DNA from: Rickettsiales bacterium
GTDB taxonomy: Bacteria; Pseudomonadota; Alphaproteobacteria; Rickettsiales; UBA1997
Reading direction: 5' to 3'
DNA: 24,000 bases
NCBI GenBank assembly: GCA_038142525.1
Contig: JAYQKE010000003.1
Location: forward strand, 3,500-27,499
Shown piece after piece: positions 1 to 24,000 of this stretch. Position numbers and translations under genes: made by a program. The notes under the pieces were generated by a model, which saw only the letters and a list, made by a program, of their open reading frames with translations, did not search any database and was not told where the DNA came from. Position 1 is the stretch's first letter. Each line of letters starts with the position of its first letter.

Positions 1-676
1 ATATCGTCTCTTCTTTGACAAAATTATATCCAAATATTGCTATTATTTCTGAAGAACATCCAGATGAAGAAAATCTAAAATTAAGAGATAAAAAAGAACT
101 TTTTTGATTGATCCAATTGACGGAACTAAAGCTTTTATTAGAAAAAAATCTCAATTTACCATTAATATTGCTTATATTAAAGATAAAAAATTTATTTTAG
201 GATTTATCTATGTGCCAATTTTAGATATTTTATATTATAGTGATTATCAAAATTCTTATAAAATTACTAATTACAATACTCAGCAGAAAGTTAAGATTTT
301 AACCAAAGAAAATAATGATTTAGATGAAGGTATTATTCAAACCTCCTCTCTCGGTAAAAGTGAAAGGGAAATTTTAGCTAAAGAATTTCAAGATATTAAA
401 ATTAAGGATAATATTTATATGACTAGCTCCTATAAATTTTGTTTAATTGCCGAAGGAGTTGCTGATTTTTACCCTAGAAGAGGAGGAATGAAAATTTGGG
501 ATGTAGCTGCTGCTTTTGGAATTTTAAAATTCTTAGATTATAAATTTTTAGATTTAGAGGGTAATGAAATTACTTTTGATGATATGATTAAGGATCTTTC
601 TCTTTCTGATTTTAATTTATTTCGTTCACAAAAGGTGTTGAATTATTTTGATTTTTCTTCAAAATATTTGTTATAG
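1..676 (+). pseudogene. cysQ: 3'(2'),5'-bisphosphate nucleotidase CysQ (inositol monophosphatase family); 5' end lies outside the window and the gene is frameshifted
   Basis: ORF 104-676 carries LIDPIDGTKAF, the IMPase metal-binding motif. It also carries SSYKFCLIAEGVADFYPRRGGMKIWDVAAA, which matches E. coli CysQ as I recall it ([30 protein letters not shown]). Upstream, frame 3 reads IVSSLTKLYPNIAIISEEHPDEENLKLRDKKELF and then hits TGA at 105-107. The two frames join across a T6 run at 100-105 (one base short). The stop TAG at 674-676 takes its G from the adjacent repeat element. Confidence 0.6.
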
Positions 677-846
677 GAACCTCTGAAAAACTAAAAATTG
701 GAATTTTTAGATCATTTTTTAGCAGAAATTCTGTTTCTTTTTGGTGCAATATGAACATATTGTGCCATAAAAAACTAAATTTATGCTAAAAAGGATCAAA
801 AAAGATCAATTTTGCTAAATACATATTTTAGTTTTTCAGAAGTTCC
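676..846 (+). mobile_element. Full-length copy (171 bp) of a palindromic MITE-like element with no coding capacity
   Basis: The termini GGAACCTCTGAAAAACTAAAA ... TTTTAGTTTTTCAGAAGTTCC form about 21-nt inverted repeats. There is a central hairpin GGTGCAATATG/CATATTGTGCC at 743-766. The copy differs from 22537-22709 at only about 8-10 positions by eye. It is flanked by a direct TATA/TATA duplication (672-675 and 847-850). Confidence 0.8.
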
Positions 847-958
847 TATAGTAGGCTAAGTTGACTATATATAGGTTTTAACAACCCCTACCCTTTTATA
901 TCATAAGTAATCTTTGGTTACTTTAGTGGAAGTTTTGTGCAAAAAATAAATATAAATT

Positions 959-2796
959 ATGTGTGGAATTATTGGCGTAATATCAAATAAAAATTCGGAA
1001 GATAAAGTTCTAGAAGGTCTAAAAAGAATGGAATATCGTGGTTATGATTCTTCTGGAATTTCGATCATGAGTAATAATATAATCAAAACTCATAAGGAAG
1101 AAGGTAAAATCATTAATTTAGAAAATTCCATTTCTAAAGATAAAAATTTTAAGGGCAATATTGCTATTGGCCATACTAGATGGGCCACTCATGGTGTTGC
1201 CAATCGTGAAAATGCTCATCCACATTTTACTAACAAAGTTAGTGTAGTTCATAATGGTATTATCGAAAATTATCAAGAAATTAAAGATAAATTAATCAAG
1301 GAAGGTTTTACTTTTAAAAGTCAGACTGATACAGAAATTGTTACTAATCTTATTGCTTCATTTTTAGAACAAAATTTTGATAAAAAGACTATTATTTTGA
1401 AAGTTTTATCGATGATTGAAGGTAGTTTTGCTTTGGGAATTATTTTTCATGATGAGGATAATCTTTTAATTGCAGCTAAAAAAGGTTCACCTTTACTTGT
1501 TGGTTTTGGTAAAAATGAGAATTATATTGCCTCAGATTATTTTGCTATTAATGATTATGTACAAAATATTTGCTATTTAGAAGATGGTGATATTGCCTTT
1601 TTAACCAAAGATAAAATTGACATTTTTGATATTAATCAAAATAAAATTACCAGAGAAATTGAAAAAATTGATAAAAATAGTGAAAAAATTAGCAAAAATG
1701 GTTTTGAACATTTTATGCTTAAAGAAATTTATCAGCTGACCAGAAACTATTCAAAAAACTTTAGCTAAATATTTAGATAAAAAAAATCATCAAATTTCCC
1801 TTCCAAAATTTTCTTTTGATCTAAAAAAAATTGAAAAAATTACCATTGTAGCCTGTGGTACTTCCTATTATGCTGGTATGATTGGTAAATATTTAATTGA
1901 ATCTTTAGCAAGAATTAATGTTGAAGTTGATATTGCATCAGAATTTCGTTATCGCAATCCACCACAAAGTAAAAATTCATTAACTATTTTTATTTCACAA
2001 TCAGGTGAAACGGCTGATACTATTCTTTGCTATGAAATATGTTAAATATCTTAATAAAAAATCTTTAGCAATTGTTAATGCTCCAAAAAGTACTATGGCC
2101 CATTTGGCTGATGATGTAATTTTAACCATGGCTGGCGTTGAAATTGGCGTTGCCTCAACTAAGGCCTTTACAGCACAAGTTGCTATTTTAATATTATTTG
2201 CCCTTAATTTAGGACAAAAAAGAGGCTTTTTAAAAGCGGAAAAAATTGATGAATTAATTGCTTCATTAAATCTTATGCCAAATTTAATGCAGCAGATTTT
2301 ATCAAAAGAATATGTTGAAAATGTTAAAAAAATTGCCCACCAAATTAAAGATGCTGAAAATATTTTATATATTGGCCGCGGTATTTCTTATGCCACATCA
2401 ATGGAGGCTGCTTTAAAATTAAAGGAACTTTCTTATATCAACTCTTCGGCCATTGCTGCAGGAGAATTAAAACATGGTACAATCGCTCTAATTGACAAAG
2501 AAACTTATGTTATTGCCATTGCTCCAGAAAATGAATTATTTGATAAAATTTCATCAAATATTGCCGAGATTTCCGCTAGAAATGGTAAGGTTATTCTTAT
2601 CTCCAGTAAGGGTGGAGTAAATAATATTAAAAATATTATTTCAAATTCCTTGCATGTCGCTCAAAATTGTGATATAATAGCCGAATCACTACTTTATGTG
2701 ATACCGGTTCAGCTGATTGCCTATTATGTTGCATTATTTAAAGGAAATGATGTCGATCAGCCGAGAAATTTAGCAAAATCCGTAACTGTCGAATAA
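959..2796 (+). pseudogene. glmS: Glutamine--fructose-6-phosphate aminotransferase GlmS, interrupted by two +1 frameshifts
   Basis: The N-terminus is MCGIIG, with the Cys2 nucleophile. SIS-domain motifs are present ([29 protein letters not shown]), and the C-terminus is the typical DQPRNLAKSVTVE. The frame path is frame 2 (959-1738), then frame 0 (1740-2045, reading [15 protein letters not shown]...[10 protein letters not shown]), then frame 1 (2026-2796). The shifts are at 1739 and at about 2025-2028. The ORF track shows only the outer pieces, 959-1768 and 2005-2796. Confidence 0.85.
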
Positions 2797-2855
2797 TTTT
2801 TAATAAATTACCTAACTGACTTTGCTAATTTAATTTTTTCTTATTTATAAATAAT

Positions 2856-5800
2856 ATGAATTTTTTAAGAAAATTTATTTTAGCTAGCATAATTCTCTGT
2901 GCAAAAAATACATTTGCGGCTAATTTTACTGTTGATGCTGGTGGTAAAACAATGACTCAATATATCTCTGCCGTTGGTGGTGATCCTGATATTGATACTA
3001 TTATCTTTAATAGTGGTGATAATGGTGTTTTAACTATTGATGCTGATAATGCCACTAATACCATTTTATCCATAGAAGCTAATGCTAGTAATAATGGAAT
3101 TATTGATTTTACTACTGCTAGCAGGGTTTTAGCTGTTCAAAATAATATAGCTGATCAGGATCAAAAACTTTCTGAAATTAGGGCTAACACTTCTGATTTT
3201 ACTATTGATGCTTCTAATTTATATGCTAATCAATTAACTATTAATACTGATTCAGCAATAGCAGGTACAGCAATTTTAAATTTTAATGATATTTCGCTTG
3301 GAGCTAATAATTTATCCATTGCAAATACAGTTAATATTTCTGGCGATATAAATGGAACTGGCGATATAAATGGTTCTAATACTAATCTTAGCTTTAATGG
3401 CTCCTCTACTCAAAATATTGCCTCTACTATTGGGGCCGCTTCTAGAATTGGTAATATTGATATTACAGGTTCAAATATTGGAGCAACCACCATTAATTTT
3501 AATAATGATACAACTATCACTAATATTAATTTTAGCAATAATTTTGCTACCACTTTAAATTTGGGTGGAACGAGCAAAACTATAAATCTTTCTGGAGATA
3601 TATCAAATAGTGGCTCTATTGATGCTTTTATTACTAATTCCACTAATGATGGTACTTTATTAATTTCCGGCTCTGCCAATCAAGATATTAATGCTAAAAT
3701 TGGTACTTCGACCAGTTCTAGATTTAATCAGGTCGATATTAATAATACTAATAATCAAATTACTTTTGCTCAAGATAGTTACATTAATAATTTTAATATA
3801 AGTGCTACTTCTAATAATTCTATTATTAGCAATAGTTCTATAATGGATATTTCAACTGCAAATATTGCCGAAGATGTAATATTTTCTGGTTCTGGTACTA
3901 TGAGCATTAATAATTTAAATATTTCATCCAGTAAAGTCTTAACTTTGCAAAAATCTATTAATATTTCTGGTAATATTACGGGTATAAATGATGGTAATTC
4001 GGAAACTATTATAGGTAATGAAGGTAGGGTTAATTTTAATGGTTCATCAGCGCAATCAGTGTCGGATGTAATATTGGGGGCAGTGCTCTTAGCAGTAATA
4101 GGCTTGCTTCTATTACTAACTCAAATGTCAATGATATTACTTTAAATGATAATGTTTATGTCACTGATGTAATTTTAAATTCTAACGGTAATTTTAATAT
4201 TGTATCTGGTAAAATAATTGATATTGAAGGCAATGTTACTAGATCTTCTGGCTCTGGTATTATTAAAGCTAATGTAAATGATGTTGGAACTGTAAAATTG
4301 TCAGGCTCTACTGCCCAAACTATTGATGTTAATATAGGAGAATCTTCTTCTAGAATTAATAATCTCAATATTTCTAATTTAGCTAGTGTTACTTTAAATA
4401 ATAATTCCTATGTTACAAATCTTACTTATAGCGGTAATAATTTAACTATGATGAGTAATAGCATTTTGGATATTAATAGTGGCGGTATGGATTTAACTAA
4501 CAAAAATACTAATTTTAAATTATCTTCAGCTAATAGCTCTTCCAATCCTTTTGGTCAAATTGAGTTAAATTCTGGCAATCTAACATTAAGTAATAGTACA
4601 GTATTTTTTGATTATAATGGTTTTACTGATTCTACCTTAAATTTTAACTATGATGGAGGAACTTACAATCTTATAAATAGCACTGGAACTGCACCAAATT
4701 TAAGTAATCTATCAGTTTCAGATAATTCTTATCTTTTTAATCACTCCCTGATTTTAAATGGCGGCAATATTGAGACAATTATCGTAAAAGATTCCAGTAT
4801 TTTTAGTGAAGGGGAGTTGGGGAAAAGTAATAATAGAATATTAAATAAAGCTCTCGAAACTTCAGATATTGCAGCAGATATCATGTCAATTAGTAGTCAA
4901 AGTGAACTGAAAGAAGCTATGGAATCTATTAGACTCCCTAATAATGCCGCTTTATTAAAATATAATATAGCCATCAATAATGATGTAAATAATATTATAT
5001 CTCAAAGGGTTAGAAATATTACATTATTCCCCAAAAGAAATAGACAAGCCTTTTGGGGCGATGTTTTTCTTTCTAACATAACTCAATCAAAGAATAGAAA
5101 GAAAGGTTATGATGGTTTTACCTCTGGTGGTACAGGTTTTTTAGCAGGTTATGATTATGTTAATGGTGGTAATGTCATTGGCTTTACCGGCTTTTATTTA
5201 GGTTCAGAAATTGCAAATGATAATAAAGGTGATTTTACCTCTATAATTAGTTCATCTGGGGCTTCTATATATAATAAATTTGGATCAAGACTCAGTCGTG
5301 GTTTTTACAATATTAATGTTTTTAATTATATTTCTAATGAATATAGGAATGAAAGAAAAGTTAAATTACCAAATTTAAAGGAAATTATTAAAGCTGAAAT
5401 TTCTGGTAATTCAATGAATGCTAGATCTGAAATTGGTTATCATATTCCTCTTATCAAAAGTTCACTTTTTTCGCCCAAAATAGCTTTAGAATATTTTTCT
5501 GATAGCAGAGATTCTTATGAAGAAAAAGGGTTGGAAAATCTAGCATTTGAAGTAAAAGAAGAAGAATTTGACAGTTTAATTTTTTCGGCAGGTTTTGATA
5601 TTGGCGGTAAATTTTATACTGGTAAAAAAAGCTTACTCTCTCCCATATTAGATATTTCTTGGCGTAAATATATGGGCGATAAGCGAAAGAGGAGCGTAAG
5701 ATGAGTTTTAAAGGAAAAAATCAATATTTTACCATGAAATCTTCTGAATTACCTTCAGATTATCTTAATCTAGCCATTAATGCTGAATATTCTAAGGCAA

Positions 5801-8886: not shown

Positions 8887-9909
8887 TTATTTTAGATTTA
8901 AAGCTTTTTCAAACTCATGTAATCTCTTCCAAATACTTCTAATTTCAGTAATTGTAGTCCAATTATGTAAAAATAAGGCAAAACCACCATGCACCCTGGT
9001 AAAAGCATTGCTAACCTGCACCATAATACCAAGCTGGATAGCGCCAGTAAATAAGCCAGGAGCCATAATTAAATAAGGAACAATCACCATAAATTGATCA
9101 TAGGCGGCAATCCAACAATCAAAATAGCCATAATGCATGTAAAGCCTGTGATAATTTAGCCTAATCCCCAAAAACAATTCCCAAAGAGTATCCTCCCTAG
9201 CATAATTAACCTTATCATCTTCTGCCAAAACTAAATCTTTTCTAAAAGCTGCCTCCACCTTTTGATTATTATATTCAAGACCAGGTAATTTCCAGCCAAC
9301 AAACCAAGAAATAATAAAACCCCCAATTGAAACAAACAAAGTGCACCAAACCAAACTACCATCAAAATCCTTTAAAAAAGGAATTTCTACCTTATCACTT
9401 AAATTCCATAAAATTGGTAGAAAAGCAATTAAGGTCATAATAGCTCTAACTATCTGCAAACCCAAAGATTCTATTAATTTGGCCCATCTAGCACAATCTT
9501 CCTGAATTCTCTGACTTGAGCCCTCAATATCCTTTTCAATATTTTTCCATTTTGGAATATAATTAAAAGTAATAGCCTCTCTCCAACGCAGGGCATAAAT
9601 TCTAGTAAACCAGCCGGTAAAAACTGCTAAGGCAACATAAGGCATAGCAATTATGATAAAACTCGGGCTAGATTTAAAGCCAGTTGAGATATAGCTAAAA
9701 GATATCAAATAATAATATAATTTTGAAATGCCCTCGGCAGGGTTGGAATAATAATCCTTAGCATTTTGCAATAAATCATAAAAATCCTTATACCAGCTAT
9801 TAATAGCAACGGTCATTTGAACTTGTATCCAAAGAGATAAAATCAATAAAAAACCACCACCATAAGCCCAAAGAGCCCATTTTCTACTCTTAAAAAAAGC
9901 TTCTATCAT
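8887..9909 (-). CDS. sbmA: SbmA/BacA-family peptide (antimicrobial peptide) uptake transporter
   Basis: Several blocks match E. coli SbmA as I recall it. INSWYKDFYDLLQ matches VNAWYAPFYDLIQ. IEGSSQRIQEDCARWA...AIMTLIAFLPILWNLS matches IEGAAQRVQEDTMRFA...AIMTLIAFLPVLVTLS. KLPGLEYNNQKVEAAFRKDLVLAEDD matches [26 protein letters not shown]. The protein is 340 aa, shorter than the 406-aa E. coli protein at the N-terminal end. Confidence 0.85.
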   Translation of the reverse strand: MIEAFFKSRKWALWAYGGGFLLILSLWIQVQMTVAINSWYKDFYDLLQNAKDYYSNPAEGISKLYYYLISFSYISTGFKSSPSFIIIAMPYVALAVFTGWFTRIYALRWREAITFNYIPKWKNIEKDIEGSSQRIQEDCARWAKLIESLGLQIVRAIMTLIAFLPILWNLSDKVEIPFLKDFDGSLVWCTLFVSIGGFIISWFVGWKLPGLEYNNQKVEAAFRKDLVLAEDDKVNYAREDTLWELFLGIRLNYHRLYMHYGYFDCWIAAYDQFMVIVPYLIMAPGLFTGAIQLGIMVQVSNAFTRVHGGFALFLHNWTTITEIRSIWKRLHEFEKALNLK

Positions 9910-10238
9910 TATTGGTCAAATTCGGATTCATTTGGATCTTTGAGATATTCAAGATAATTGCCAAAAGGATCTTGAAGATAAATTGAAGAAGTGCCATCGC
10001 GATGTAATTTTAATTCTCCATATTTTTCTGCATCATCTTTTAAAAAGGCCAGATGTGGCGGGTGTTTTCCTGGTAGAACCAGAGCTAATTTAATATTACC
10101 AAATTGTAAAAATCCCCATGTTTCATCCTGATAAAGAATCTCTATCTGAAAATTTTCTGTGTAATATTTAATAGCATCAGCAATATTATCAACTTTTATT
10201 GCCATATGATGAATTTTATCTAATTTTTTATCAGTCAT
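9909..10238 (-). CDS. Glyoxalase / bleomycin-resistance / dioxygenase (VOC) superfamily protein
   Basis: The 109-aa ORF has the pattern of a single VOC module (IHHMAIKVDNIADAIKYYTENF ... LQDPFGNYLEY). Its stop overlaps the sbmA start codon by 1 nt (TAATG at 9909). Confidence 0.65.
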   Translation of the reverse strand: MTDKKLDKIHHMAIKVDNIADAIKYYTENFQIEILYQDETWGFLQFGNIKLALVLPGKHPPHLAFLKDDAEKYGELKLHRDGTSSIYLQDPFGNYLEYLKDPNESEFDQ

Positions 10239-10316: not shown

Positions 10317-10561
10317 TACTCCCGGCAGGATTCGAACCTGCGCACATGGATTAGGGACTGTCCAAAATCTATGTTGAAATACTTTTTTCATTGCTTTTCT
10401 GTTAATTTTTGCCTAAATTCAACGATTTTTTAGCCCAATATGGGTATATTGCACCAAAAAATCATCAAATTTTGTCTAAAAATTACCCAAAAAATCAAAG
10501 GAAAAATATTTCGGACAGTTCCTTTAGGAAACCAATGCTCTATCCCCTGAGCTATGGGAGT
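10317..10561 (-). tRNA. tRNA-Arg(CCU) gene interrupted in the anticodon arm by a 169-nt element (pseudogene or intron-containing gene)
   Basis: The minus strand from 10561 to 10523 reads ACTCCCA TA GCTC AGGGGATA GAGC A TTGGT TTCCTAA A. This gives the acceptor 5' strand, the D-arm, the anticodon stem and the anticodon loop, with anticodon CCT at 10528-10526. The minus strand from 10350 to 10317 reads TCCAT GTGC GCAGG TTCGAAT CCTGC CGGGAGT A. This gives the T-arm with the canonical TTCGAAT loop, an acceptor 3' strand pairing with ACTCCC, and discriminator A. No CCA is encoded. The two halves are separated by 10354-10522. Confidence 0.75.
10354..10522 (-). mobile_element. Diverged copy (169 bp) of the GGAAC palindromic element, inserted in tRNA-Arg(CCU)
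   Basis: Read on the minus strand it starts GGAAC and ends GTCCC. Its 15-nt inverted termini are GGAACTGTCCGAAAT/ATTTTGGACAGTCCC. It shares the block TTTTTGGTGCAATAT...CATATTG.GC with the canonical copies, at the same offset (nt 63) from the GGAAC end. It also shares AATTTTTAGA and is nearly the same total length. The flanks are TAAA (10526-10523) and TAAT (10353-10350), a 3/4-matching A/T-only duplication. Confidence 0.6.
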
Positions 10562-10723
10562 AAAAGACAGCTCCATTACGCTATTACTTTAAGGATATAT
10601 TTCAATAATTCAACTTCAGAAAAACAAATTGTAGCAATTATTATTTTTAAATATGAAATTAAGATATACTATTTTGCAGGAGAAGCTGGTTCTCCATCAA
10701 TCGCAGACGACGGATTACTAACA

Positions 10724-11077
10724 TTAGGTGATGGGAGGTCCCGAAGAATCAGATGGAGGTGGTTCTATGGCTGGAATCTTCTTGCTAGGAGTAATCTCAC
10801 ATTTCAAACCTGATCCTCCCGCTTCAGCATCAAATTTTTCTTGACTTACTATTTGACCAATAGAAAAACTAGCATCTGACAACATCCCACCTATCCATTC
10901 CCCTTCATATTTCTGCTTATCTTCTGAAATATAAGTACCTTGTCCATTTGGCTCTCCATCTTTAAATTGACCTTGATATTGCCTATATCCAAAACCATTA
11001 TTACTATCCCAAGTCATAACACCTTGACCATTTAGCTTTCCATCTTTAAATTGACCTTGATATCTAGTACCATCCAT
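10724..11077 (-). CDS. MORN-repeat protein with a Pro/Ser-rich C-terminal tail
   Basis: The 117-aa ORF has consecutive MORN-like units (YQGQFKDGKLNGQGVMTW, YQGQFKDGEPNGQGTYI, YEGEWIGG). Its tail is IPAIEPPPSDSSGPPIT. There is no signal peptide. An AAGG lies 7 nt upstream of the ATG. Confidence 0.7.
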   Translation of the reverse strand: MDGTRYQGQFKDGKLNGQGVMTWDSNNGFGYRQYQGQFKDGEPNGQGTYISEDKQKYEGEWIGGMLSDASFSIGQIVSQEKFDAEAGGSGLKCEITPSKKIPAIEPPPSDSSGPPIT

Positions 11078-11666: not shown

Positions 11667-13532
11667 TTAATTAGCAGATCCCTGCTTTCTAAGATATATT
11701 ATTATTGCCATAATAGCAGCAGGTGTAATCCCAGGAATACGGCTCGCAAGTGAAATATTGTTGGGTCTAGCAAAATTTAATTTTTCTACCACCTCATTAG
11801 AAAGACTTTGGATATCTTTATAATTCAAATCTTCTGGAATTTTTAGAAATTCATCCTTTTTAAAAATCTCAATATCCCTCTTCTGCCTTTCAATATAGGA
11901 ATGATAAAGTGCTTGAATTGTAATTTGTTCCTGATTTTCCTGAGAAATTTCTACAAATTCTGGCCAAATCCCTATTATTTTATCAAAATCAATATTACCA
12001 ATTGTCAGCAACTCAAAAGCATTTCTCTTGACTCCATCTTGTTTAATTTCTATGCCAAAATCTTTTAATTTTGCTGGCGTGATAGTTACTTTTTTTAAAC
12101 TCTCTAAATCTTCTATTAAAGATTTTTCTTTTTCTAAAAAAATTCTTTTTCTCTCATCAGAAACCAAACCAATATCAATAGCAATCTTTGTTAATCTTAA
12201 ATCAGCATTATCAGAACGCAGTAAAAGACGATATTCCGCCCTAGAAGTAAGCATTCTATAAGGCTCACTAGTACCAAGACGAATCAAATCATCAATCATC
12301 ACCCCAATATAGCTGTTGGTCCTACTTAAGGTAAATTCCTCATCAGAACCTTTGGCCCTAAAAACAGCATTAACACCAGCCACCAGACCCTGCCCTGCTG
12401 CTTCTTCATAGCCAGTTGTACCATTAATTTGCCCAGCAAAAAAGAGATTTTTAATTTTTTTAGTCTCCAATGTTGGCTTTAACTCTCTTGGATCAATAAA
12501 ATCATATTCAATAGCATAGCCATATTGCGCCACTTTTACATTTTCTAAACCCTTAATGCTTTTTAAAAATCGCAATTGAATTTCCTCAGGAAGTGAATTT
12601 GAAATACCATTTGGATAAATTAAATCAGAATCCAAACCTTCTGGTTCAAGAAAAATCTGATGCCTTTCCTTATCATAAAAACGCTTAATCTTATCCTCAA
12701 TTGAAGGACAATAACGCGGAGCAGAACCGGTAATATTACCATAAGAAATTGAACTCAAATGTAAATTATCATTAATGATTTTATGAGTTTTTTTATTGCT
12801 ATAAGTAATGAAACAATCAATTTGCGGTATAGAAATTTCTTTATTTAAAAATGAAAATGGTTTGGGAATCTCATCACCTTTTTGAATTTCTAGCTCTGAA
12901 TAATCAATTGAATCCTTATAAATTCTTGGCGGTGTGCCAGTTTTTAAACGACCTAAAGCAAAATTATATTTTTTTAACCTTTCCGAAATACCATTTGACG
13001 GCTCCTCGCCAATTCTGCCAGCAGGAATTTCCTTTTGCCCAATATGAATTTTTCCAGCAAGAAAAGTTCCAGCAGTTAAAATAACTGATTGAGCTAAAAA
13101 TTCCCCGCCATTTTCAGTAATTACCCCTTCAATTCTATCATTTTTAATAATCAGATCGGAAATTTTATCAAAATGCAGATCAAGATTCTGGTAATTTTTT
13201 AAAATCTTATTAATGGCTTTTTGATATAATTTCCTATCAGCCTGCGCTCTCGGCGAATGAACCGCAGCACCCTTACTAGCATTTAAAATCTTTACATGAA
13301 TAGCAGACATATCAATGGCTTGCCCCATTATGCCATCCAGCGCATCAATTTCACGCACAATTGTGCCCTTAGCCACCCCACCAATCGCAGGATTGCAAGA
13401 CATTTGCCCAAGATTATCTTCCTTAATCGTAATTAATAGAGTTTTGGCTCCCATCCTGGCTGAGGCCGCCGCAGCTTCCGAACCGCTATGACCACCACCA
13501 ATTATAATTACATCATAAATTTTACTACTCAC
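11667..13532 (-). CDS. mnmG: tRNA uridine 5-carboxymethylaminomethyl modification enzyme MnmG (GidA)
   Basis: The 621-aa ORF has the N-terminal FAD motif [23 protein letters not shown]. It also has [15 protein letters not shown], and is GidA-like over its full length, including [23 protein letters not shown]. Confidence 0.97.
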
Positions 13533-17371: not shown

Positions 17372-17421
17372 GAAACCTCTGAAAAACTAAAAATTGGAAT
17401 TTTTAGTTTTTCAGAGGTTCC
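17372..17421. mobile_element. 50-bp internally deleted mini-copy of the GGAAC palindromic element; likely a bidirectional terminator hairpin
   Basis: GAAACCTCTGAAAAACTAAAAATT-GG-AATTTTTAGTTTTTCAGAGGTTCC consists of the two element termini joined directly. It forms a 24-bp hairpin with one mismatch. It is flanked by a TTAA/TTAA duplication (17368-17371 and 17422-17425). It lies between the convergent stops of phrB (17354) and ppdK (17440). Confidence 0.75.
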
Positions 17422-17439: not shown

Positions 17440-20101
17440 TTAATCTAAATTTGCTTGAGCAGCAGCGATTCTAGCAATAGGAACGCGATAAGGAGAACAA
17501 GAAACATAATCTAAACCAACCTTATGACAAAAATTAACTGATTTTGGATCACCACCATGTTCACCACAAATACCTAATTTAATATTTTTTCTGGTTTTTC
17601 TGCCACCTTCTACAGCTATTTCAATCAATTTACCAACACCTTTTTGATCAAGAACTGCAAAAGGATCTTTTTCAATAATATTTTGAGCTTTATAGTCAGG
17701 TAAGAAATTACCAGCATCATCACGAGAAATACCAAGGGTAGTTTGAGTTAAATCATTAGTTCCAAAACTAAAAAACTCTGCTTCTTTAGCAATCTCATCA
17801 GCAACAATTGCCGCTCTTGGAAGTTCGATCATAGTTCCAACCATATAATTCAAATCACCAGCAAAATTAGCTTTTACCTCTTGGTAAGTATCATTAATGA
17901 TTTTCCTTAAAATCTCTAATTCTTTTGGAATACAAACCAAAGGAACCATGATTTCAATTTTCGGCTCCTTACCTGTTTTCTTTTTGATATTAAAACCAGC
18001 TTCAAAAATCGCCCTAGCCTGCATCTTATAAATTTCTGGATGGGAAATACCAAGCCTACAGCCTCTGTGACCGAGCATTGGATTTTCTTCACTCAATCTA
18101 ATAATTCTAGATTTAATATAATCTTTAGAAACATTAAGAATCTCAGCCATTTTGATAATATCCTTATCTTCATGAGGCAAAAATTCATGCAAAGGTGGAT
18201 CAAGAAGACGAATATTTACTGGTAAACCCTCCATGATTTCAAAGATTTCTTCAAAATCCTTTCTTTGCATTGGAAGTAATTTTTCTAAAGATTCTAACCT
18301 ACCATCCTTTGTTTCAGATAAAATCATTTGACGCACAGCATCAATACGATCCTCATTAAAAAACATATGTTCAGTACGACATAATCCAATACCTTCAGCA
18401 CCAAATTCCCTAGCAATTTTGCAATCTTTTGCGGTTTCGGCATTAGTTCTAATTTTTAATCTTCTAATATCATCAACCCAAGACATTATGGTTCTAAAAT
18501 CATCAGATAATTCAGGATCAATAGTTGGGACAGTACCTAAAATTACATCACCAGTAGAGCCATTAATGGTAATAATTTCTCCCTCCTTTATTTTCGTATT
18601 AGAAATAATAACTTCCTTAGCATCATAATTAATCTCAACTTCAGAAGCGCCACAAACACATGGGGTTCCCATGCCACGCGCAACAACAGCAGCGTGAGAT
18701 GTCATGCCACCTCTAGAAGTTAAAATTGCCTTGGCAACCGCCATACCCTTAATATCCTCTGGGCTAGTTTCAGCTCTAACTAAAATAACATTTCCAGCTT
18801 TTGATTTTTCTTCAGCATCTTTTGATGAAAATACCACAATACCAGAAGCAGCACCAGGCGAAGCTGGCAATGCTTTAGTTAAAATTTTAACCTTAGCCTT
18901 TGAGTCAATTCTCGGATGTAATAATTGATCTAAAGATTCTGGAGAGATTCTTTTAACCGCCTCCTTTTGATTAATTAAACCCTCTTGCACCATATCAACG
19001 GCAATTTTTAAAGCAAAGAGTAACACTTCTTTTACCTGATCTGGTTTGAAGCATCCATAATTTATTATTTTGAACGGTAAATTCAATATCTTGCATGTCA
19101 CGATAATGAAGCTCCAATTTTTGATAGATATTTACTAGATCTTGATAAGCAAAGAGGCATTGACTCCTCCATAGAAGGTAAATCGGATCCAGATTTAATT
19201 CTTGCTAATTTAGTAATATTTTGCGGTGTTCTAATACCAGCAACAACATCTTCACCTTGAGCATTAATTAAATATTCACCGTAAAATTCTTTTGCTCCAG
19301 TTGAAGGATCACGAGTAAAAGCAACACCAGTAGCACAATCTTCACCCATATTACCAAAAACCATTGATTGAATATTAACAGCTGTTCCCCACTCGACAGG
19401 GATATCATGAAGTTCACGATAGGTAATAGCGCGATCATTCATCCAAGAAGCAAAAACCGCTTCAATTGCGCCCCATAATTGTTCTTTAACATTTTGAGGA
19501 AATTCTTTGCCCGTTTCCTGCAAAACCTTTTCTTTAAATAAAGAAATAATTTCTTCTAAATGTTTTTCTGTTAAATCAGTATCTAAAAATATACCATATT
19601 CAGATTTTTTTCATCCATAATTTCTTCAAAATTATAATGATCTACACCTAATACCACATCAGAATACATTTGAATAAAACGACGATAAGAATCTAAAGCA
19701 AATCTTTTATTATCACTTTTTTTAGTAAGACCAATTAATGTCTTATCATTAAGACCAAGATTTAGAACGGTATCCATCATGCCAGGCATAGAAGCCCTGG
19801 CACCAGAACGGACAGAAAATAAAAGGGGATTCTCACTATCACCAAAATTAGCTTGCAATTTTTTTTCAATCTTTGCAATAGATTCACTAATTTGAAACTC
19901 TAATTCTACCGGAAAATTTCTATTATTTTTATAATAAATATCACAAACTTCAGTAGTAATTGTAAATCCTGGAGGAACGGGTAAAGCAAGATTTGACATC
20001 TCAGCCAAATTTGCACCCTTACCACCAAGAAGATTTTTCATCGAAACATCACCTTCCGATTTTCCATCTCCGAAATTATAAACTAATTTATTTTTACTCA
20101 T
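17440..20101 (-). pseudogene. ppdK: Pyruvate, phosphate dikinase PpdK, split into three frames
   Basis: The N-terminal piece (19583-20101) contains [10 protein letters not shown]. The middle piece extends upstream of the ORF-track start (to about 19604) and ends at 19098; it contains [14 protein letters not shown]. The C-terminal piece (17440 to about 19153) contains the phospho-His region GGMTSHAAVVARGMG, plus CRTEHMF and GICGEHGGDP. The shifts are at the coding-strand A7 run (plus-strand T7 at 19605-19611, one base short) and at ATGCCTCTTTGCTTAT (19141-19160, one base extra). Confidence 0.9.
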
Positions 20102-22536: not shown

Positions 22537-22709
22537 GGAACCTCTGAAAAACTAAAAATTGGAATTTTTAGATCATTTTTTAGCAGAAATTCTGTTTCTT
22601 TTTGGTGCAATATGGACATATTGTGCCATAAAAAAACTAAATGTTATGCTAAAAAAGGGTCAAAAAGATCAATTTTGCTAAATACATATTTTAGTTTTTC
22701 AGAGGTTCC
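22537..22709 (+). mobile_element. Full-length copy (173 bp) of the palindromic MITE-like element
   Basis: The termini GGAACCTCTGAAAAACTAAAA ... TTTTAGTTTTTCAGAGGTTCC form perfect 21-nt inverted repeats. The central hairpin is at 22604-22627. A TTAT/TTAT duplication flanks the copy (22533-22536 and 22710-22713). The right end overlaps the last codons of rarA. Confidence 0.85.
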
Positions 22710-24000
22710 TTATCTCTCAATCTTTGCCAATAATCCACCCTCTTTGCTATCTCCCTTTCAAAACCCCTTTCATTTGGTTCATAATATTTAGGACGCGCCC
22801 CTTTATCTTGTAATATTTCTTCAGGAAAATATTCCTGACCAGAAAAACAATTTTTTGTGTCATGATCATAAATATATCCTTCCTTATAACCCATATCCTG
22901 CATCATTTTAGTAGGAGCATTGAGAATATATTTTGGTGGAGATTGATTATTATATTTTTTAGCATCATTTCTAGCCTCCTTATAGGCCTTGTAGCAGGAA
23001 TTTGATTTTGGTGCAGTAGCGCAATAAATCACTGCATTTGCTATAACATAATCACCTTCTTTTTTACCCAAAAAATGATATGAATCTTTGGCGACCAAAG
23101 CCTGAATCAAAGCATTAGGATCAGCCATAGCAATATCTTCACTGGCAAATCTAACAATTCTTCTAAGAATATAATTTGGATCTTCTCCAGCTTCTAACAT
23201 TCTAGCTAAATAATAAAGAGAAGCATCGACATCTGACCCTCTCATTGCCTTATGAAGAGCACTGATCAAACCATAATGACTATCACTTTTTTTGTCATAA
23301 ATTGCCATTTTCTTTTGCAAAATATCTGACAATTCTTTTAGATCTATTAATTTATTTGAATCAAATAAAAATAATTCTTCACATAAATTTAAAAGATATC
23401 TGGCATCTTTAGCTGCAATTTCTATTAATTTTTTCCTAGAATCTTGAGTTAATGGTAATTTTTTGCCATAATATTCTTCAGCTCTTTTTATTACCAATTC
23501 TAAATCAAAATCTGATAAAGGCTTTAATTCCACAACTCGACATCTAGATAAGAGAGCAGAATTTAATTCAAAAGAGGGATTTTCGGTTGTAGCGCCAATT
23601 AAAATAATTGTGCCATCTTCAATATAAGGTAAAAATAAATCCTGCTGGGATTTATTAAAGCGATGAATTTCATCAATGATTAAAATTGTATTTACAGACT
23701 GATCTTCTCTTCTTTTTATAGCTTCATTAAAAACTTTTCTAACTTCTGACGCTGTGCTATTAGTTGCCGATAAAATTTGAGAGTGATAATTTGGTAATTT
23801 AGCTAAAATTTTAGCAATAGAGGTTTTGCCACAACCAGCCCTGCCCCATAATATTAATGAAGGTATTTTTTGCGATTTAATTATTCTGGTTAAAATGCCA
23901 TTTTGGCCTAAAAGATGATTTTGACCAATAATTTCATCAATTGATTTTGGTCTTAAAATATCAGCAAGAGGCTGATAAATTTGAGTTTGATTATTTTGTA
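22691..24000 (-). CDS. rarA: Replication-associated recombination protein A (RarA/MgsA AAA+ ATPase); N-terminus lies beyond the window edge
   Basis: The frame stays open from the GTG listed at 23533 up to position 24000. My hand translation gives ...LADILRPKSIDEIIGQNHLLGQNGILTRIIKSQKIPSLILWGRAGCGKTSIAKILA...ILIIDEIHRFNKSQQDLFLPYIEDGTIILIGATTENPSFELNSALLSRCRVVELKPL. This covers Walker A, Walker B and sensor regions. The C-terminal MgsA domain contains HYGLISALHKAMRGSDVDASLYYLARML and PPKYILNAPTKMMQDMGY. Confidence 0.9.
   Translation of the reverse strand, partial: QNNQTQIYQPLADILRPKSIDEIIGQNHLLGQNGILTRIIKSQKIPSLILWGRAGCGKTSIAKILAKLPNYHSQILSATNSTASEVRKVFNEAIKRREDQSVNTILIIDEIHRFNKSQQDLFLPYIEDGTIILIGATTENPSFELNSALLSRCRVVELKPLSDFDLELVIKRAEEYYGKKLPLTQDSRKKLIEIAAKDARYLLNLCEELFLFDSNKLIDLKELSDILQKKMAIYDKKSDSHYGLISALHKAMRGSDVDASLYYLARMLEAGEDPNYILRRIVRFASEDIAMADPNALIQALVAKDSYHFLGKKEGDYVIANAVIYCATAPKSNSCYKAYKEARNDAKKYNNQSPPKYILNAPTKMMQDMGYKEGYIYDHDTKNCFSGQEYFPEEILQDKGARPKYYEPNERGFEREIAKRVDYWQRLRDKEPLKN

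Follow-up and report, generated by a model that had tools for sequence, protein, structure and literature searches.

The window, a stretch of 24,000 nucleotides with a G+C content of 30%, belongs to a member of the Rickettsiales, in keeping with the alphaproteobacterial host that a preliminary description of this DNA had proposed. It contains a tRNA-Arg(CCU) gene on the minus strand that is present in two pieces. Upstream of the tRNA locus lie the gene for a MORN-repeat protein, holC, and mnmG (gidA; 11667..13532, minus strand), the last of which is intact (NCBIfam TIGR00136, 840 bits). Downstream of the locus lie the genes for a VOC/glyoxalase-like protein of 109 aa (9909-10238, minus strand) and an SbmA/BacA-like transporter (8887-9909, minus strand), which served as synteny anchors.

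The 5' part of the tRNA gene covers positions 1-39 in 39 nt (10561-10523; ACTCCCATAGCTCAGGGGATAGAGCATTGGTTTCCTAAA) and holds the 5' strand of the acceptor stem, the D arm, the 5' strand of the anticodon stem, the loop UUCCUAA, and A39. The 3' part covers positions 40-73 in 33 nt (10349-10317; CCATGTGCGCAGGTTCGAATCCTGCCGGGAGTA) and holds the 3' strand of the anticodon stem (CCAU), the variable loop, the T arm, the 3' strand of the acceptor stem, and the discriminator A. The 173 nt between the two parts consist of a palindromic element of 169 nt on the minus strand (10522-10354; GGAACTGTCC...GGACAGTCCC) and the tetranucleotide TAAT (10353-10350). Specifically, TAAT is the right copy, with one substitution, of a 4-bp target-site duplication whose left copy, TAAA (10526-10523), makes up the last four bases of the 5' part. 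Intact orthologues read TTCCTAAACCAT at this place.

With the insert in place, no contiguous tRNA was found by ARAGORN anywhere in the 24-kb window or by Rfam at the gathering score in the window, and ARAGORN found none in contigs of the source organism (L040-L043, L048, L049). Once 10350-10522 was deleted in silico, ARAGORN called tRNA-Arg(cct), confirming the coordinates, the insert size, and the tRNA reconstruction given in the preliminary description. Relatives carry an uninterrupted tRNA-Arg(CCU) at the same syntenic position, and the joined halves match it at all but 3 of 72 positions, on which ground a chance resemblance to a tRNA was rejected. The four pairs described for the anticodon stem stand, with the qualification that the U27.U43 mismatch at the top of the stem is native and occurs in intact orthologues as well. 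Run in intron mode, ARAGORN calls tRNA-Gly(ccc), interrupted at 34/35 by an intron of 171 nt. We rejected this call, which could mislead automated annotation, as a formal artefact that arises because the 3' end of the element together with the duplicated target (TCCCTAAT) mimics an anticodon loop (TTCCTAAA).

Contigs of the source organism were reached by exact-protein look-ups with the VOC and MORN proteins of the window, which occur in many ENA, JGI, Logan, and NCBI assemblies (114-143 collection blocks in the index). Contigs L040-L043 are 99.86% identical to the window. The 486-bp interval between the MORN and VOC genes is base-for-base identical in ERZ23495712 (ENA), Ga0228632_1000069 (JGI), ERZ23495543, ERZ27284541, and the window. 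The split allele occurs in independent Illumina metagenome assemblies and is thus real and no artefact, and it is fixed in the sampled population.

The insert and its element family

The insert is a true MITE: it ends in inverted repeats, is flanked by an AT-rich target duplication of 4 bp, and belongs to a family of many copies. Its terminal inverted repeats, GGAACTGTCCGAAAT and ATTTTGGACAGTCCC, match at 13 of 15 positions (GGAACTGTCCGAAAT versus GGGACTGTCCAAAAT), and TAAA/TAAT flanks it where intact orthologues have a single TAAA. The element is 169 nt long, and all paired ends of the family lie 50-173 nt apart, with no transposase gene between them in the ~190 kb of sequence examined. An ORF that overlaps the insert (10409-10813) has no Pfam match. 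Copies are dispersed, with four in the window and more on contigs L022-L039, and their presence or absence differs between relatives.

The three other sites of the GGAAC family that had been noticed in the window were all recovered and constitute subfamily A there. Two copies are full-length, at 676-846 (target duplication TATA) and 22537-22709 (TTAT), and the third, at 17372-17421 between convergent genes, is an internally deleted copy of 50 nt (TTAA). A minus-strand ORF (22691-23533) ends within the copy at 22537-22709. The ends of subfamily A are near-perfect terminal inverted repeats (GGAACCTCTGAAAAAC). A scan of metagenome contigs with the central motif gave 18 loci, one of which (L034) overlaps window positions 1-4201 at 99.7% identity, and these loci include many further subfamily A copies that are 93-99% identical. 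Of 17 subfamily A copies, 12 have a perfect, AT-rich target duplication of 4 bp; the duplications listed are TATA seven times, TTAA twice, and TTAT, TAAA, GATA, and ATTA once each. Subfamily A is young, falls into three size classes of about 170, 142, and 50 nt, and prefers TATA-like 4-bp targets.

The tRNA insert shares with subfamily A only its central ~100 nt, at ~72% identity. Metagenome contigs of the source or closely related organisms contain closer copies, which together with the insert make up subfamily B (ends GGWACTGTCCRAAAT). Two of them (L032:7516-7684 and L038:2036-2204) are 86% identical to the insert over the full length, and further ones on L039, L024, and L029 are about 90-92% identical over parts. 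A reading of the insert as a decayed subfamily A copy was rejected, because closer B copies exist and the self-complementarity of the insert equals that of young A copies. The insert therefore belongs to an older subfamily. Its membership of the GGAAC family thus stands, but the earlier view of it as a diverged copy of the family seen elsewhere in the window does not, the insert representing a separate subfamily with its own ends.

An autonomous insertion sequence was sought in ~190 kb of contigs from the source or closely related organisms, and no family ends more than 200 nt apart were found. An autonomous partner may lie elsewhere in the genome; MITEs are often filed without a known autonomous partner. 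The family has no match among the plasmid-borne repeats of PLSDB. This is apparently an undescribed MITE family of two subfamilies, in an uncultured marine Rickettsiales lineage. We came across no description, in the literature searched, of a MITE within the anticodon arm of a bacterial tRNA, an incomplete search that is weak evidence of novelty.

The insert is predicted to fold into a long rod, with a free energy of -55.0 kcal/mol in the tRNA sense versus -38.3 kcal/mol for the opposite strand. This asymmetry of 17 kcal/mol is due to G.U pairs and may reflect either chance or selection on the transcribed strand. Subfamily A copies have a smaller strand asymmetry of 4-10 kcal/mol. The predicted fold of the whole locus (-80.1 kcal/mol, z = -6.3 versus shuffles) contains the acceptor stem, the D arm, and the T arm, with the insert as a long rod. 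In Rfam, no intron family matches the insert at the gathering score or in permissive mode (E <= 10), where only chance-level hairpin-precursor models appear, consistent with the earlier remark that it has no group I core.

Intact orthologues and the state of the tRNA halves

Marine metagenome contigs were reached via homologues of the transporter. An uninterrupted tRNA-Arg(CCU) (GCTCCCGTAGCTCAGGGGATAGAGCATTGGTTTCCTAAACCATGTGCGCAGGTTCGAATCCTGCCGGGAGCA) lies directly upstream of the VOC-transporter gene pair in L001/L003-L007/L011/L015, in L002, and in L044-L047 (GCA_028040005.1). The orthologue in L002 scores 67.2 bits on the Rfam tRNA model, which has a gathering score of 29. Comparison of the orthologous locus, as suggested in the preliminary description, gives empty sites at the same syntenic spot in four related Rickettsiales lineages, that is, in all related lineages examined. 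The locus originally read TTCC-TAAA-CCAT and now reads TTCC-TAAA-(169 nt)-TAAT-CCAT, which amounts to a 4-bp duplication whose right copy has since changed from A to T at one position.

Genome contigs were scanned at the DNA level for the 5' half of tRNA-Arg(CCU), with A or G at position 7 and with positions 1, 7, and 72 free to vary. The scan gave 14 genomes, mostly Rickettsiales MAGs, with one match each, and tRNA-Arg(CCU) is single-copy in relatives. With A or G at position 7, only intact G7 alleles were returned, all from other species. A scan of metagenome contigs for disrupted alleles (the 5' half followed by a base other than C, GGGGATAGAGCATTGGTTTCCTAAAD) gave no match; this negative is unreliable and no proof of absence, because Ga0228632_1000069 (L041, JGI) contains GGGGATAGAGCATTGGTTTCCTAAAD.

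In most of the genes compared, 41-52% of synonymous third positions differ between the window and three related lineages, and these three lineages have 0-1 differences in tRNA-Arg(CCU) among themselves. The near-invariance of the tRNA despite such synonymous divergence points to strong constraint for most of the history of the window lineage, and the insertion is thus recent on that scale. The nearest relatives found have roughly 85-87% protein identity. A closer sister lineage was sought via the 90% cluster of the VOC protein, whose members led either to the source organism (L048, L049) or to the lineage of L044, and L044 is no closer than the other relatives (amino-acid identity of 85% for MnmG and 64% for the transporter).

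Two side observations concern these relatives. The intact tRNA-Arg(CCU) of GCA_028040005.1 (L044:2908-2981; also L045-L047) has a T for the otherwise invariant G10, so that U10 faces C25 in the D stem; for a gene without any interruption this substitution is odd. Near the orthologous locus of L001, a contig of 197.6 kb, lie IS3-type and IS5-type transposase genes, a resolvase gene, and a ParE toxin gene (1113-5719 and 18157-19026), and the priA and ABC-F genes of L001 are broken up. Mobile elements together with fragmented genes, or else errors of assembly, are thus a common feature of this clade.

The tRNA halves of the window differ from the orthologues by G1 to A and G7 to A in the 5' part and by C72 to T in the 3' part, and are otherwise identical. 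Positions 1, 7, and 72 are G, G, and C in 14 of 14 scan genomes and, by contig look-ups, in three related lineages. The two acceptor strands had been described as complementary, which is not quite the case. Specifically, G7A breaks the G7-C66 pair present in all relatives and leaves A7 opposite C66, and G1A together with C72U turns G1-C72 into A1-U72 with pairing kept.

Set against the other B copies, 7 of the 169 nt of the insert (4.1%) show private changes, which is an upper bound on change since insertion. In the halves, 3 of 72 nt (4.2%) have changed, and in the duplicated target 1 of 8. Although the numbers are small, such like fractions in halves and insert are as expected under neutral drift since insertion, and this fits relaxed constraint on the halves and their neutral decay. 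A paired change at 1-72 would arise by chance in ~3% of cases by a rough estimate, which suggests that acceptor-stem pairing was at some point selected for. Most simply, the 1-72 change arose under selection before the insertion, and one disruptive change followed afterwards.

AGG decoding and the fate of the gene

AGG makes up 40 of 211 Arg codons in the long ORFs of the window, or 6.6 per 1000 codons. Relatives that retain the tRNA have 4.2-7.7 AGG per 1000 codons, a range that includes the value of the window, and other contigs from the source or closely related organisms have 5.9-6.5. At aligned Arg sites, AGG in the window stands opposite AGA in relatives six to seven times, and the reverse occurs at most twice. 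Judging from these counts, AGG is not depleted and is still decoded, in line with the earlier observation that AGG codons remain in use.

The decoder is most likely tRNA-Arg(UCU) with a modified U34. Modification of U34 lets the UCU anticodon read AGG besides AGA, and mnmG, which encodes part of the enzyme modifying U34 of tRNAs such as tRNA-Arg(UCU), lies intact close by. The tRNA-Arg(UCU) gene itself was not seen in the sequence reached, of which ~190 kb (L022-L043, L048, L049) holds no other tRNA-Arg. In E. coli, argW, which encodes tRNA-Arg(CCU), is dispensable since tRNA-Arg(UCU) reads both AGA and AGG (PMC4652775). The two cases are alike in that an AGG-only decoder can be lost where tRNA-Arg(UCU) reads AGG too. 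They differ in that the E. coli case rests on experiment, whereas we infer the same here, and in that AGG is far commoner in the window.

Our main reading, to which we assign a probability of about 0.85, is that the locus is a tRNA-Arg(CCU) pseudogene made by a MITE, with AGG covered by tRNA-Arg(UCU). A non-autonomous MITE of 169 nt has transposed into the TAAA that spans positions 36-39 of tRNA-Arg(CCU), a gene in single copy, and has left these four bases duplicated. Because the gene is in two pieces and no contiguous anticodon arm is possible, it would be a pseudogene, and we infer that no mature tRNA-Arg(CCU) is made. The loss would be tolerated because tRNA-Arg(UCU) with a modified U34 can also read AGG. 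The insertion is recent relative to the split from the nearest sampled relatives, and it has become fixed in the sampled population.

That a MITE had killed a dispensable AGG-reading tRNA was one of two possibilities raised in the preliminary description. It is supported by the terminal inverted repeats, the 4-bp target duplication, the multiple copies, and the empty sites, and also by the lost acceptor-stem pair and by halves that have changed about as much as the insert. Two counterpoints exist. AGG is undepleted and its decoding is still needed, and the halves are otherwise perfectly preserved, with two of the three substitutions restoring a pair. Ordinary gene loss by a MITE, and no new kind of tRNA intron, is most likely. 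The locus would then provide a clean, datable case in which a burst of palindromic elements removes a redundant tRNA from a small, AT-rich Rickettsiales genome, well documented by empty sites in four related lineages and by a population-wide allele. Annotation of this genome as being without tRNA-Arg(CCU) would be correct and no sign of incomplete assembly.

The setting resembles the palindromic-element expansions of Rickettsia. A Rickettsia palindromic element (RPE) is inserted in the tmRNA gene of Rickettsia bellii (PMC1458961). Like RPEs, the elements described here are short, palindromic, and AT-rich, have spread to many copies within a Rickettsiales genome, and can insert into structural RNA genes, a likeness of form and setting. 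Unlike RPEs, they show clear target duplications of 4 bp and are found between genes or at the ends of genes, and the copies in the window are not inserted in frame within protein genes. The R. bellii tmRNA insertion is assumed to be tolerated, whereas the present insertion lies in the anticodon arm, a part of a tRNA that cannot accommodate additional sequence. Correia elements of Neisseria are also comparable; we know of none inside a tRNA gene. They are MITEs of ~100-170 bp that end in inverted repeats, are flanked by short AT target duplications, form hairpins, and are co-transcribed with neighbouring genes (PMC2649163), all of which is similar to the family described here. A difference is that their hairpins are cleaved by RNase III and mRNA stability is altered, with nothing re-joined.

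The gene may be dead and AGG nevertheless be decoded from another, intact copy of tRNA-Arg(CCU) in the genome, instead of by tRNA-Arg(UCU). The undiminished use of AGG would fit such a copy, but we consider it improbable, since each of the 14 related genomes has exactly one match and ~190 kb of contigs (L022-L043, L048, L049) contains no other tRNA-Arg.

Removal of the insert at the RNA level, the other possibility raised in the preliminary description, is less probable still. The rod would be cut from the transcript by a double-strand-specific nuclease such as RNase III, and the halves would be re-joined or would act as a two-piece tRNA. The MITE would then act as a newly acquired bacterial tRNA intervening sequence of a new kind, with the halves held by the acceptor stem and the remaining anticodon stem. 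If true, removal would explain the undiminished use of AGG and the almost intact halves, and it would show as a UUCCUAAACCAUG junction; the joined reference across this junction reads ...GGUUUCCUAAACCAUGUGC... with the lineage-specific A1, A7, and U72. The compensatory change at the 1-72 pair and the fixation of the allele in the sampled population are in its favour, as is the predicted rod, which would bring the halves together and folds better in the tRNA sense. Precedents in part are the hairpins of Neisseria MITEs, which are RNase III substrates (PMC2649163), palindromic elements in Rickettsia structural RNA genes such as the R. bellii tmRNA gene (PMC1458961), and engineered two-piece tRNAs that decode in vitro (bioRxiv 10.1101/2024.11.24.624523). 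However, the engineered tRNAs, made of fragments 1-31 and 34-76, are opened 5' of the anticodon, whereas the break here is 3' of it, and the CCU anticodon was poor in that system (bioRxiv 10.1101/2024.11.24.624523). In addition, no intron family or ribozyme core was matched in Rfam, the halves have changed as much as the insert with one pair lost, and the insert is absent from all related lineages, with nothing that shows retention under selection.

The enzymology also argues against removal. RNase III leaves 5'-phosphate and 3'-hydroxyl ends together with helix stubs, which are no substrates for an RtcB-type tRNA ligase. We know of no bacterial pathway that cuts out and re-joins such an insert or that re-joins RNase III products, nor, to our knowledge, do bacteria have a tRNA splicing endonuclease of the bulge-helix-bulge type. 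Bacterial 23S rRNA contains intervening sequences that are excised by RNase III and whose flanking pieces stay unjoined, being kept together in the ribosome without ligation. The tRNA insert is likewise helical, interrupts a structural RNA gene, and could be clipped from the transcript, but a tRNA cut beside the anticodon has no scaffold comparable to the ribosome.

Reinhold-Hurek and Shub reportedly described in 1992 self-splicing group I introns in bacterial tRNA anticodon loops, including that of Agrobacterium tRNA-Arg(CCU). The present insert interrupts the same isoacceptor in the same tRNA arm, likewise in an alphaproteobacterium. Unlike those introns, it has the form of a simple rod, carries transposon ends, and is flanked by a duplicated target, and neither a group I nor a group II catalytic core was matched in Rfam. 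RNA-level removal is thus unsupported: nothing positive was found for it, neither an intron match nor a diverged lineage that keeps the insert with conserved halves. The finding would matter much more only if the transcript yielded a working tRNA, and nothing here suggests so.

Fidelity of the window sequence

An origin of the split in misassembly or sequencing error is refuted: although the window has indel errors relative to short-read contigs, at least four independent metagenome assemblies share the 486-bp interval base for base, and the insert is flanked by a target-site duplication. About ten small indels distinguish the window from the short-read contigs L040 and L042, at positions 105, 803, 1739, 2025, 4080, 5685, 11384, 19018, 19154, and 19611, and none of them lies in the 486-bp tRNA interval. 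Several fall in homopolymers, and several fall where the contigs read GCAGC or GCTGC and the sequence of the window is garbled, for example GCAGCAG versus GCAAAGAG in the window. The pattern looks like a systematic error of long reads, perhaps tied to methylation of a GCWGC motif. Long-read error would explain the apparent frameshifts in holC (91 aa versus 145 aa in the contigs) and in an autotransporter gene (429 + 468 aa versus 1026 aa), as well as the split pyruvate phosphate dikinase gene (versus 886 aa). The autotransporter gene (2856-5704), neither fragment of which matches NCBIfam, encodes a protein of 1026 aa in L040. The gene is large, Asn/Thr-rich, and repetitive inside, with diverged ~50-nt repeats at 3494, 3788, and 4390.
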